A program made the position numbers and the translations under genes. DNA of 26,154 bases, taken from a virus (Duplodnaviria; Caudoviricetes). The notes under the pieces are model-generated. The model did no database searches, was not told the origin of the DNA, and worked only from the letters and a program-made list of their open reading frames with translations. Within the stretch, counting starts at the first letter, position 1. Each line of letters begins with the position of its first letter. Location of the stretch: positions 1 to 26,154 of the IMG/VR virus record IMGVR_UViG_3300033475_000490; one strand, 5' to 3'. Shown here piece after piece: positions 5,432 to 23,676 of the stretch.

Positions 5432-6535
5432 GTGGCTACCACTTCTCCCGCTGGTAACACGCTGACCGAAGAGCAGCGCTATAAGATTCAGTCGAAGCTT
5501 TGGCAGGAGCGACTGAGGAGGACCCAGAACCAGGTAAGGTCTCTGACTGCCGAAGCTGAGCGGCTCAAGGGTCGGAAGGACAAGCGGAGCCAGCAAACGC
5601 TGGCTCGCGTTCAGGCTAGCCTGAAGTCTGCTCAGGCAAGTCTGGGCGATATCAATAAGAACATTACCAGCCTCAACAATAAGCATTACGAGGCAACCGG
5701 CCAGTACGACAAGCTCCTGAGTGGGGCTAACCGAGATGCCTTCATGGCTCTTCAGTCGCTGTTCAAGACCTACGGTCTGGAGAGCCTTGCGGGAAAGATC
5801 TACGAGTACGTCAAGAACGGCTACGGCTCGGACACGATCAGCATTCTGCTCCAGGATACGCCGGAGTACAAGCAGCGGTTTGCCGCCAACCAGCAGCGGC
5901 TCAAGGATGGCCTACCTGTTCTTTCCCCCGCCGAGTATATCGATACCGAGAACTCGTATCGCGCTCTGCTACGGCAGAGCGGATTGCCCGGTGGATTCTA
6001 TGACAGCAACGACGACTTCACCAACTGGATAGCCAAGGGAGTCAGCCCGACCGAGGCGCAATCCAGGGTCGACCTGGCCACCCAGGCTACGGCCCTGGCT
6101 AATCCCTTTTACAAGCAGGCGCTGAATCAGCTCGGCATCGACGATGGCCACCTGGCTGCATACTTCCTTGATCCCGACAGGGCCCTCCCCCTGATCCAGA
6201 AGGCTGCCGCCACGGCTCAGATTGGCTCTGCCGCCCTGGCTCAGGGACTTACGTTCGACAAGACGTTCGCCGAGCAGTTGGCCACCAGTGGAGTTACGGC
6301 AGCCCAGGCTCAGCAGGGCTACCAGCAGGTTGCTGGAGAGCTGGGGACTATGCAGTCCCTCGCCTCTGTCTACGGAACCACTTGGACTCAGGCTCAGTCA
6401 GAGCAGGCCGCGTTCGGCACGAACGCTGCCGCTGGTGCGCAGAAGGCTAGCATCGTAGGACAGGAAAAGGGCGCGTTCTCCGGAGGCGCCGGAGGCGGCC
6501 GTGCTGGCCTGAGCCAGTCCCAGCCTCAGCAGTAA
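5432..6535 (+). CDS. hypothetical protein, probable internal virion protein (367 aa, N-terminal coiled coil, Ala/Gln-rich C-terminus)
   Basis: AAGGAGG then GTG; operon position. Confidence 0.7.
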   Translation: MATTSPAGNTLTEEQRYKIQSKLWQERLRRTQNQVRSLTAEAERLKGRKDKRSQQTLARVQASLKSAQASLGDINKNITSLNNKHYEATGQYDKLLSGANRDAFMALQSLFKTYGLESLAGKIYEYVKNGYGSDTISILLQDTPEYKQRFAANQQRLKDGLPVLSPAEYIDTENSYRALLRQSGLPGGFYDSNDDFTNWIAKGVSPTEAQSRVDLATQATALANPFYKQALNQLGIDDGHLAAYFLDPDRALPLIQKAAATAQIGSAALAQGLTFDKTFAEQLATSGVTAAQAQQGYQQVAGELGTMQSLASVYGTTWTQAQSEQAAFGTNAAAGAQKASIVGQEKGAFSGGAGGGRAGLSQSQPQQ

Positions 6536-6541
6536 CATTCA

Positions 6542-6603
6542 GGGTAGATGGCCATTGGGATGGCCCCAGTTATGACCCGGGTTCGATTCCCGGCTGCCCA
6601 CCA
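6542..6603 (+). ncRNA. tRNA-like RNA lacking an anticodon arm (62 nt, encoded CCA)
   Basis: GGGTAG/CTGCCC acceptor stem + A + CCA; T arm CCGGG-TTCGATT-CCCGG; 6-bp hairpin GGCCAT-TGGG-ATGGCC at the D-arm position; only 11 unpaired nt where anticodon and variable arms should be. Confidence 0.65.
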
Positions 6604-6710
6604 GTAGCGGACCTACCGGCACCAGCTACTTGTATCAAGTCCGGCAATCATAATGAGGAGCTGGACACGCCTCCCCGGGCGTGCCTATGGCCTCACAACT
6701 AATGGGAGGG
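6603..6710 (+). promoter_or_regulatory. structured 5' leader of the scaffold gene (stem-loops, possible pseudoknots, anti-SD)
   Basis: AGTAGC/GCTACT (6603-6608/6625-6630); TGAGG/CCTCA (6654-6658/6691-6695) enclosing CACGCC-TCCCCG-GGCGTG; CCTCCC (6670-6675) complementary to RBS GGGAGG (6704-6709). Confidence 0.5.
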
Positions 6711-6715
6711 ACAAC

Positions 6716-7195
6716 ATGTCCAACTGGGGTTTTGAGAACAGCGACGCTAACGACCTGGGCAACGGCACCGAAGGTAACGGCCCCAAGGCACTTCGTGATG
6801 CGTACGAGGCCATGAAGAAGCAGAACGACGAGCTGAGCCAGAAGCTGACGAGCTTTCTGGAAGAGCAGGCTCAGCAGAAGATGGCCACCGTTTTTGAGTC
6901 CCTCGGGGTTCCGGGCGCACAGGCTGCGTACCAGGGTCCCAACGATCCGGCGAAGGCCAAGGAATGGGTCGACCAGATGCGTTCCGTCTTCGGCGGCGGA
7001 CAGCCCCCGGCTGTCGAACAGCCCACAACGCCCACACTTCCTCCGTCCATGCAGGCTCAGTATGAGCGCATGAACGCTGCGGGGAGTGAGGGGACGCCGC
7101 TGGGCAATGTGGAAGCTGCACAGGCAGCTGTTAATGATGCTACAGACGTCAACGCTCTCATCAATGCCTTCAAGAATGGGCAGTTTGGGAGCTGA
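6716..7195 (+). CDS. capsid scaffolding protein (159 aa)
   Basis: Start moved to ATG 6716 after GGGAGG; acidic N-terminus, coiled coil, Pro-rich linker; directly upstream of the capsid gene. Confidence 0.75.
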   Translation: MSNWGFENSDANDLGNGTEGNGPKALRDAYEAMKKQNDELSQKLTSFLEEQAQQKMATVFESLGVPGAQAAYQGPNDPAKAKEWVDQMRSVFGGGQPPAVEQPTTPTLPPSMQAQYERMNAAGSEGTPLGNVEAAQAAVNDATDVNALINAFKNGQFGS

Positions 7196-7215
7196 TTCCC
7201 ATAAAGGAGTGAGAC

Positions 7216-8202
7216 ATGGCTAACGCCTTTACCGGCACTACTGCCATGGCGAACCTCGTTCAGGCCGCGTATGACCGCGCTCTTGAGTTCGCCCTTCGTA
7301 AGCAGCCTCTGTTTCGTACGGTCGCCGATAAGCGGCCGGTTCAGCAGGCTATGCCTGGTTCCTCGGTTGTCTTTGAGCTGTACCAGGACCTGGCTCAGCA
7401 GGTCACCCCGCTGAACGAGCTGGTCGACCCGGACGCCGTCGCGGCCGGTAACCCGACCCCGGTTACGGTTACCCTCAACGAGTACGGTAACGCGATTCTC
7501 GTCAGCAACAAGCTGGACCTGTTCAGCTTTACCGACGTGACTGCCGGTCTCGTCAACCAGGTGGCCTGGAACCTGGTCGACTCTGTCGACCTTCTGGTTC
7601 AGAACGTCCTTGCCAACGGTACTCAGACCCTGCGTACCGACGGCACGACCAAGGCTGCATATGGCTTCGGCACCACGCCTACCAACCCGATCGCCCTTAC
7701 GGCGATCGACTCCGACTCCGTGTTCAATAGCGACATGGCTCGGTTTGCCACCACTCAGCTGCGGACGAACGCGGTTCACCCGAACCGCGACTCGTACTAC
7801 ACCGCCTACATCCACCCGCAGGTCTCTTACGACCTTCGGCGAGAGACTGGCGCTGCGGCCTGGCGTGACCCGCACAACTACTCCGCTGCGGGTAACATCT
7901 GGGCGGGCGAGATCGGCGAGTACGAAGGTGCTTGCTACATCGAAACCCCGCGTGCCCAGAACGTTCAGTCTGGTGCCGGTGCTGGCGCGACCCAGACTCG
8001 CGTGTTTAACACCTACTACACCGGTCAGCAGGCTCTCGCTGAGGCTGTTGCCGAGGAGTTCCACACGGTTCGCGGTCCGGTTGTCGACAAGCTTACCCGT
8101 TTCCAGCCGCTCGGCTGGTACGGTGTCGCGGGCTGGTCTCTGTACCGTCCCGAGGCCCTGATCGTCGCCCAGTCCACCTCTTCGGCCCGCAACGCTGCCT
8201 GA
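7216..8202 (+). CDS. major capsid protein (328 aa)
   Basis: AAGGAG RBS; highly biased codon usage; capsid-like segments (VTLNEYGN, YTAYIHPQV, GEIGEYEG, DKLTRFQPLGWY); follows scaffold. Confidence 0.9.
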   Translation: MANAFTGTTAMANLVQAAYDRALEFALRKQPLFRTVADKRPVQQAMPGSSVVFELYQDLAQQVTPLNELVDPDAVAAGNPTPVTVTLNEYGNAILVSNKLDLFSFTDVTAGLVNQVAWNLVDSVDLLVQNVLANGTQTLRTDGTTKAAYGFGTTPTNPIALTAIDSDSVFNSDMARFATTQLRTNAVHPNRDSYYTAYIHPQVSYDLRRETGAAAWRDPHNYSAAGNIWAGEIGEYEGACYIETPRAQNVQSGAGAGATQTRVFNTYYTGQQALAEAVAEEFHTVRGPVVDKLTRFQPLGWYGVAGWSLYRPEALIVAQSTSSARNAA

Positions 8203-23139: not shown

Positions 23140-23478
23140 TCACTCCCCAATCCGATGGATGCCATACTGATTGGCGTGCTTGCGAGTCTTGCGGTTCGCC
23201 TCGCGCTCACGTCGAATGTTCTCGACTTGAGTCACTGGGTCCAGGTGGCCAGGATTTACGCACACCTTGTTGCGGCATGTGTGATCCAGCACCAGTTCAC
23301 CAGGGTCGCCAACCAGCATCATGTAAGAAGCCTTGTGCGCCAAGATGGACAGACCCTTGTTCTTGCCGCTACCAAACTGGCCGTAACCATTCGGCAGAGT
23401 GGGGCCCGTCCACTCCCAACACTCATCCGTCCAGCCTGTATCAACCCTTGGCCAGAACAGCTCTGCTGCCGTCTTCAC
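23140..23478 (-). CDS. HNH homing endonuclease (112 aa)
   Basis: CWEWTG, GYG, AHKASY, LDHTCRNKVCVNPGHL, ENIR motifs. Confidence 0.9.
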   Translation of the reverse strand: MKTAAELFWPRVDTGWTDECWEWTGPTLPNGYGQFGSGKNKGLSILAHKASYMMLVGDPGELVLDHTCRNKVCVNPGHLDPVTQVENIRREREANRKTRKHANQYGIHRIGE

Positions 23479-23576
23479 TTGCCCCCCTTCGTGTCCTTGA
23501 ACCGCTTCGCCATCTCGTCCAGCTCCTTCTTTTGCTCCTCGGTCAGGCTCGCTTCGCGCATGTCAGAGATTGCCAT
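23475..23576 (-). CDS. 33-aa helical micro-protein (MAISDMREASLTEEQKKELDEMAKRFKDTKGGK; not in ORF track)
   Basis: Perfect TAAGGAGG RBS; GTGA overlap with HNH. Confidence 0.7.
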   Translation of the reverse strand: MAISDMREASLTEEQKKELDEMAKRFKDTKGGK

Positions 23577-23594
23577 GCTCGCCTCCTTAGTGCG

Positions 23595-23676
23595 TGGACC
23601 TGCGGGGATTCGAACCCCGGTGCGTCAGCCCTCCGTATGCCTACGGTTCAAGCCGACGACGAATCCAACCAGGCCC
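23595..23676 (-). ncRNA. miniature tmRNA-like RNA: tRNA-like domain only, alanine identity, no tag ORF
   Basis: GGGCCTG/CAGGTCC-A acceptor with G3.U70 and A73; stemless D-loop GTTGGATTCGT; helix CGTCGGCTT/GGGCTGACG capped by CCGTA-GGCA-TACGG; 3-nt linker; T arm CGGGG-TTCGAAT-CCCCG. Confidence 0.75.

Follow-up and report, generated by a model that had tools for sequence, protein, structure and literature searches.

The early genes of bacteriophage T7 are separated by RNase III sites that split the polycistronic RNA, and mascRNA/menRNA (Rfam RF01684), which belong to vertebrate lncRNAs, are small tRNA-like elements directing the cleavage of a longer RNA. In plant mitochondria, the t-elements described for Arabidopsis cox1, rps4, ccmFN1, ccmC and nad6 resemble tRNAs but do not decode; they contain a conserved GGTTCRANYCC arm, and their ends fall on the mapped ends of mRNAs. 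In this role, full tRNAs and mimics are equivalent there, and some of the elements overlap the upstream stop codon (PMC1920247). The Y RNA YrlA, found in actinobacteria and some mycobacteriophages, contains an anticodon-less tRNA mimic with D, T and acceptor features; it also has a Ro60-binding module and accompanies a Ro60 gene (PMC4201824). Phages of cluster BF carry an array of 20-24 tRNAs in the slot before their scaffold gene (PMC9753666), and the GP20-type RNA motifs (PMC10690425), as well as phage P22, have a structured leader with a hidden ribosome-binding site directly upstream of a scaffolding gene.

The locus compared here lies in a 26,154-nucleotide stretch of viral DNA (IMG/VR record IMGVR_UViG_3300033475_000490), hereafter called the window. 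As in the case of the t-elements, its element has a non-canonical cloverleaf with a conserved T-arm motif at a gene boundary, and is interchangeable with true tRNAs in its slot. The phage mimics differ from the organellar forms, whose ends are mapped, in being 11-bp top halves of tRNA, present gene by gene in up to 15 copies, each followed by a hairpin or pseudoknot. They resemble the T7 sites as repeated intergenic structures in phage RNA for a host nuclease, proposed in our case, but the T7 sites are long double-stranded hairpins, whereas the mimics present a T loop, an acceptor and a discriminator-C geometry. The array tRNAs of BF phages share the identical slot, the T-arm sequence and the R73-C74 end, whereas the mimic lacks the anticodon arm, has a 6-bp acceptor and cannot decode. 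Y RNA models gave no match to the element at E up to 1, and the Immanuel3 annotation contains no Ro60 gene. Against RF01684, only a second mimic in the window scored, at 29.9 bits, below the threshold of 42.5. The scaffold leader of the window, unlike the GP20-type motifs and P22, starts at a tRNA 3' end, and it matched no Rfam family at E up to 1.

The armless element and the scaffold leader

Sequence comparison places the window among the cluster-BF-like phages (Beephvirinae), relatives of Streptomyces viruses, from which its host is presumed; it is a genome fragment, about 58% complete, that does not contain the early arm. In seven named BF genomes, about 115 nt separate the end of the tRNA array from the scaffold gene; in Immanuel3, all 22 array tRNAs follow the homologue of the upstream gene block and precede the scaffold gene. 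By the same comparison, the window mimic occupies this array slot (Table 1).

Table 1. Features of the window discussed in the text
Feature	Position	Strand	Remarks
Upstream gene, end of putative internal-virion (ejection) gene block	5432..6535	+	PHROG 8424, unknown function; block label presumed
Armless tRNA mimic	6542..6600	+	acceptor of 6 bp, D-like hairpin, linker, T arm with 5-bp stem and loop, A6600 as discriminator
Predicted cleavage site, A73|C74 or shifted by one base downstream	6600..6602	+	suggested by C74 conservation
Leader domain 1	6603..6645	+	helix P1 6603-6608/6625-6630, pseudoknot 6616-6619/6641-6644
Leader domain 2	6655..6715	+	stem 6655-6661/6689-6694, hairpin 6666-6683 with C-rich loop
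Scaffolding-protein gene	6716..7195	+	conserved start 6716, not ORF start 6653
Major capsid protein gene	7216..8202	+	73-75% identical to cluster BF phages
Second tRNA mimic, tmRNA tRNA-like-domain-like	23592..23676	-	after putative SSB-like gene; A73 at 23595

The mimic begins six bases after the TAA (6533-6535) that ends the upstream gene. Its acceptor strands (6542-6547/6594-6599) form six base pairs, one of them G-U, which add up to 11 bp with the T stem (6577-6581/6589-6593, loop TTCGATT); a hairpin at 6550-6565 and an 11-nt linker lie between them, and A6600 is followed by CCA. In a context of 230 nt, the pair probabilities were 0.94-0.98 for the acceptor and T stems and 0.74-0.92 for the hairpin. 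By inspection, the hairpin can also be taken for a D stem of 4 bp whose 8-nt loop contains the D-loop GG. The sequence and three stems are thus as the sequence-only reading of this DNA had described them, and the tRNA finder that it named, ARAGORN, made no call on the element, which also gave no Rfam match at E up to 1. By canonical tRNA criteria the anticodon arm is missing and the acceptor has 6 rather than 7 bp. The element had further been credited with a CCA end; CCA is encoded at 6601-6603, but the transcript does not present it as a free end: A6603 is paired with U6630 in the following helix at a probability of 0.92, and only 53 of 113 relatives retain A76.

Folding energy did not set the mimic apart from chance (z -1.13), and 22% of shuffles reached an acceptor match as good as its own (p 0.22), so the case for the mimic rests on its relatives. 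A 43.6-kb contig from another study covers positions 6000-7400 gap-free with 18 substitutions, and its single change inside the mimic, C6566T, affects a linker base that is not paired. The same change occurs in another sample from that study, which covers 6097-6594, whereas runs X5 and X6 had no coverage of the element. The gap-free contig rules out an assembly error as the origin of the missing arm, and the armless tRNA look-alike is real and conserved. As for a tRNA fragment of an attP site, the stems of the relatives are alike in structure and not in sequence, and the Immanuel3 annotation contains no integrase.

The mimic is followed by a double-pseudoknot leader of about 115 nt (6601-6715 of the window, + strand), which was present in all 114 distinct relatives and whose structure, seen in an alignment of 85 of the 114, begins at tRNA positions 75-79, in the window at position 76. 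Nine leader pairs that MAFFT aligned with no fitting were paired in 93.8% of cells, with two-sided changes in eight of the nine; neither this pairing level nor the covariation score was reached by any shuffle or slid control. The C-rich loop of domain 2 covaries with the Shine-Dalgarno sequence at 6704-6709: loop CCCTA and TAGGAG occurred together in 31 relatives, were discordant in 1 and 3, both missing in 77 and unparsed in 2, a co-occurrence that largely follows clades of non-independent kin. This loop-SD pairing forms the second pseudoknot and probably controls translation of the scaffold gene as a distinct mechanism. The scaffold gene of P22 is autoregulated, and by analogy the scaffold protein is perhaps the effector here as well. 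HDV-like theta ribozymes sit at tRNA 3' ends; such a ribozyme was rejected for the leader, which in the alignment has only a few bases between the P2 5' strand and the P1 3' strand, where the nested P3/L3 hairpin would be needed, and matched no ribozyme in Rfam. In one relative (L014:2300-2480), a hairpin of about 60 nt is inserted within domain 2.

Occupants of the slot in relatives

To compare the slot, 213 loci were collected, and the scaffold start could be located in 199; after loci with under 190 nt upstream were dropped and duplicates merged, 114 distinct leaders were obtained. A T-arm/acceptor end precedes the leader in 113 of them (109 by rule, 4 by eye), and N73 lies 109-130 nt from the scaffold start codon in 112 of the 113. 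Sorted by eye, the occupants were 82 full tRNAs, 26 armless forms and 5 degenerate cloverleaves, and one slot held none. The full tRNAs had 13 identities, ranging from a Val that ends arrays of 20 tRNAs to a lone Met, Asn, Pro or Trp. Among the 32 slots in which ARAGORN found no tRNA, 28 keep a strict T arm with an RC end, compared with 2 of 633 control windows of coding DNA, the test window having been placed after the data were seen. In one relative (L014), a tRNA-Met and an armless mimic both occupy the slot; in another (L078:195-280), the lone occupant is a gene that ARAGORN calls tRNA-SeC(tca)-like, which may act as a suppressor of UGA or represent a degenerate tRNA.

The single empty slot (L150) carries the leader without a mimic, and the mimic is thus dispensable there. 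This relative keeps A-C-T-C before P1, a retention that would fit an RNase E site.

On a FastTree phylogeny of the scaffold and capsid proteins with 111 rows (three of the 114 were omitted for short or interrupted capsid sequence), the armless state required 18 changes, at least 11 of them forced by well-supported branches. Phages with near-identical proteins differ in their occupant (L044/L045/L047, L034 versus L036, L031 versus L032, and L011 versus L186). The acceptors of the 26 mimics formed 142 pairs, compared with a shuffle mean of 99 and a maximum of 119, although kin among them are not independent, and in four relatives (L036, L107, L108 and L045) the acceptor 5' strand overlaps the upstream stop codon. 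Since the slot shows free exchange of occupants, paired acceptors and kept T arms, it is the top half of the tRNA that is kept and not the anticodon. The sequence-only reading would have counted complete tRNAs at this site in relatives against a role for the element; such tRNAs are carried by most relatives, but they do not refute a function, because 26 of the 114 slots are armless and the state changed at least 11 times. Furthermore, eight of the 26 slot mimics bear the linker-to-T-loop signature of the compact family described below, one of them with a compensatory tertiary pair.

Compact mimics and a second site in the window

Three of five complete relatives contain runs of a T-loop motif, 300-700 nt apart and on one strand. 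These belong to a compact mimic of 45 nt, in which an A precedes an acceptor of 5 bp, a GG-containing linker of 11 nt leads to a T stem of 6 bp with its T loop, and R73-C74 closes the element. Ten copies were found in Streptomyces phage Caliburn, 12 strong and 3 weak copies in the 40.7 kb examined of mycobacteriophage Papyrus, and one copy in 8 kb of a Microbacterium phage; most of the copies also served to train the model, R1. The copies lie on the sense strand between early genes in Caliburn, Papyrus and BF-like relatives (L449:41040-48599, - strand; L450:8258-15820, + strand; L280, L282 and L284). The stop codon precedes the copy by 8-39 nt for nine Caliburn copies and by 6-16 nt for 11 of 13 Papyrus copies; 2 of the 13 overlap an annotated start. 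Over 43 copies, 99.3% of cells were paired and 10 of 14 pairs covaried; the GG and the T-loop C were invariant, the first acceptor pair was G-C in 42, and a linker base covaried with T-loop position 60 (AU 31, GC 7, CG 2, UA 1). Promoter repeats acting at the DNA level were rejected as an account of the family, since covariation in the stems and in the T-loop pairs points to RNA.

To a wider set, 109 of 172 loci contributed 162 distinct copies, some of which may be unrelated tRNA fragments. In this set, a hairpin of at least 6 bp began at positions 75-79 in 77 of 162 copies, compared with 337 of 3240 controls, and a Shine-Dalgarno sequence plus start codon followed within 90 nt in 121 of 162. 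The window element shares the compact geometry, with 11 bp from the T loop to R73-C74, an A before the stem and a helix at 75-79. Against R1, only its T arm matched, at E 0.43, the element having 6+5 bp and a 29-nt insert and lacking the compact linker, and it is tied to the compact family through the common slot and the 11-bp geometry.

The family was not found in Immanuel3, Manuel, G003, G008 or G009, the last three being two complete relatives and one 62% complete; the early arm of Immanuel3 has hairpins and no mimics. It gave no Rfam match at E up to 1, and the strict pattern had no match in 185,579 bacterial genomes, in which a second pattern matched six loci. Our literature search, with most subscription papers beyond reach, found no prior description of these elements, and either this motif or the leader may be present, unnamed, among the 10,006 candidates of PMC10690425.

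Several related arrangements were observed as well. Five tandem compact mimics lie upstream of one gene on an Amycolatopsis antarctica contig (L456:1499-2000, - strand), and tandem mimics also occur in L452:1400-1540 (+ strand) and L454, with GGCAW-rich spacers of 5-nt period between them; spacers resembling these were seen in a Gordonia MAG. Longer structures with several T loops, followed by a shared hairpin motif, lie upstream of the early arm in L281:100-310, L282:6760-6870 and L287 (close to the contig end, on the minus strand).

The second mimic of the window scored 52 bits against the tRNA-like domain of tmRNA, with 8 nt replacing 294 model positions. A tmRNA gene was rejected at this site, which has no tag reading frame and no ARAGORN call. 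When 33 loci and the window were reduced to 24 distinct relatives, all 24 kept the T arm, in tmRNA-like, tRNA-like or minimal form. In 9 of the 24, a homologous small ORF starts with GTG or ATG at position 75 without a Shine-Dalgarno sequence; 13 others have a Shine-Dalgarno sequence and no position-75 start, and 2 have neither. Leaderless translation occurs in Streptomyces. The position-75 starts without a Shine-Dalgarno sequence are the strongest sign of a 5' end made at 74-75 and of a leaderless mRNA. Many second-site forms are tmRNA-like, perhaps for SmpB binding. In the window, a small acidic/basic ORF with an LTEEQ...KGGK motif (23467-23574, - strand), of a length below that of the listed ORFs, is conserved behind the second mimic.

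The 3' end and the proposed function

With the register fixed, the last-position full slot tRNAs (82) had C74 in 81, CC in 72 and CCA in 39, and the internal array tRNAs (437) had C74 in 403 and CC in 66. The conserved feature is R73-C74 and not CCA, because C74 is near-universal, CC and CCA vary, and A6603 is paired. In the two host genomes sampled, of Amycolatopsis and Jiangella and not of Streptomyces (L458-L517; 60 regions taken from 98 tRNA matches), C74 was encoded in 69 of 71 tRNAs, including 35 of the 37 without CC. The encoding of C74 without CCA fits a tRNA 3' maturation by a cut 5' of C, and the near-universal C74 points at how actinobacteria form their tRNA 3' ends.

The element is a reduced tRNA top half, consisting of an acceptor stem, a T arm and the D-loop GG. 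We consider it probable, from the comparison of sequences, that it marks a processing site in the mRNA, where a host nuclease acting on tRNA 3' ends would cut just 3' of the element and yield a 5'-protected scaffold-capsid mRNA. The host nuclease would recognise the top half and cut the late transcript at A6600|C6601. Candidates are RNase Z, which is reported to cleave after the discriminator (PMC10673834), and RNase E, of which the mycobacterial enzyme is reported to cleave 5' of cytidines (PMC10641625). Either specificity would place the downstream 5' end at C6601. The RNase Z of B. subtilis is inhibited when a C follows the discriminator, and this would speak against RNase Z here. Protection from 5'-end-dependent decay usually comes from a helix that lies one to three bases from the 5' end. 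The released scaffold-capsid mRNA would begin with about two unpaired bases and a pseudoknot, which would slow such decay and let this mRNA accumulate above the upstream one, and through its stability scaffold and capsid, both of high copy number, would be uncoupled from the upstream proteins of low copy number. The mimic would remain as the structured 3' end of the upstream mRNA, or be freed by RNase P; elsewhere, the released downstream mRNA would start with a protective helix or a start codon. A processing signal had been suggested by the sequence-only reading as well, with ends at 6542 and, with CCA, at 6603. The comparison supports the signal well, as a prediction, and favours a 3'-side cut near 6601 over RNase P cutting at 6542.

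The main event could instead be RNase P cleavage at 6541|6542, such that the mimic caps the 5' end of the scaffold-capsid mRNA or leaves as a small RNA. The enrichment of CC at 74-75 in the last element over the internal tRNAs and the G-C first acceptor pair of the compact copies are in favour of it, and RNase P is described as cleaving non-tRNA substrates and mRNAs (PMC11143913). Nevertheless, such a cut would remove the upstream stop codon in the four relatives whose acceptor overlaps it, and would leave the position-75 start codons and the hairpins at 75-79 unexplained. Because of this overlap and the short acceptor, RNase P cutting is doubtful, a 7-bp stem having been called a major determinant for the enzyme (PMC4201824), and we regard it as unlikely to be the main event. 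An uncut tRNA elbow, bound by a protein of the phage or the host and controlling elongation, termination or translation of the next gene in cis, would agree with the D/T elbow features being the most conserved part and with the five tandem Amycolatopsis copies, which lie in one non-coding stretch rather than one per gene. Starts exactly at position 75 without a Shine-Dalgarno sequence, however, require a 5' end, C74 is conserved as in true tRNAs, and any full tRNA can replace the mimic, so that we find an uncut elbow quite unlikely.

The proposal that a released RNA acts as a decoy, sequestering tRNA-binding or tRNA-targeting host proteins, had also been made in the sequence-only reading. The mimic has no anticodon loop and hence nothing to cut, some phages hold 6-15 copies, and the second-site elements resemble the tRNA-like domain of tmRNA. 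The idea did not hold up against the 82 of 114 relatives with an ordinary tRNA in the slot, the poor conservation of A76 (53/113) and a position fixed to the gene boundary and leader, which a trans-acting RNA would not need; a decoy role is unlikely, and the probability we give it is very low. Lower still is that of a neutral relic of a shrinking tRNA array, arisen by deletion or recombination at T arms. The mimic is indeed located exactly at the former array site, its own fold is not above shuffles, and L150 has lost it. But the element is absent from only 1 of 114 slots, unrelated acceptor sequences re-pair above chance, the stems carry compensatory changes, and eight slots hold a compact family that is known elsewhere between genes.

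With the 3'-side processing mark as the preferred reading, the window element probably belongs to a so far undescribed system by which actinophages punctuate their mRNAs with tRNA mimics. A wider proposal, which we put forward tentatively and at somewhat less than even chance, is that at least three unrelated actinophage groups (BF-like podoviruses, R4-like siphoviruses such as Caliburn, and Papyrus-type mycobacteriophages) run a mitochondria-style tRNA punctuation, in which 11-bp elbows, too short for RNase P, are cut 3' only by the host's tRNA 3'-end nuclease; each mRNA so formed would be monocistronic, capped at its 3' end by a tRNA-like structure and, at its 5' end, either leaderless or headed by a hairpin. 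If true, the single tRNA genes of many such phages would be retained as cut sites and not for decoding. Conservation in this slot is confined to the top half and the anticodon plays no part, which suggests a testable reason for the retention of tRNA genes by phages, and a processing role would extend tRNA punctuation from organelles to bacteriophages. The two RNA families defined here and absent from Rfam, the 45-nt minimal tRNA elbow and the double-pseudoknot scaffold leader, can both be tested in cultured phages (Caliburn, Papyrus and cluster BF) grown on laboratory hosts, and a portable cut signal of 45 nt would serve as an expression part for Streptomyces and M. smegmatis.

Within 6300-6800 of the window, a scan that is weak for Streptomyces found no sigma-70-type promoter and no U-tailed terminator. 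In the lineage of L061 (2245-2275) and L062, a TTGACA-17-TATAAA promoter match lies just upstream of the lone slot tRNA-Pro, and therefore new initiation can also feed these genes.
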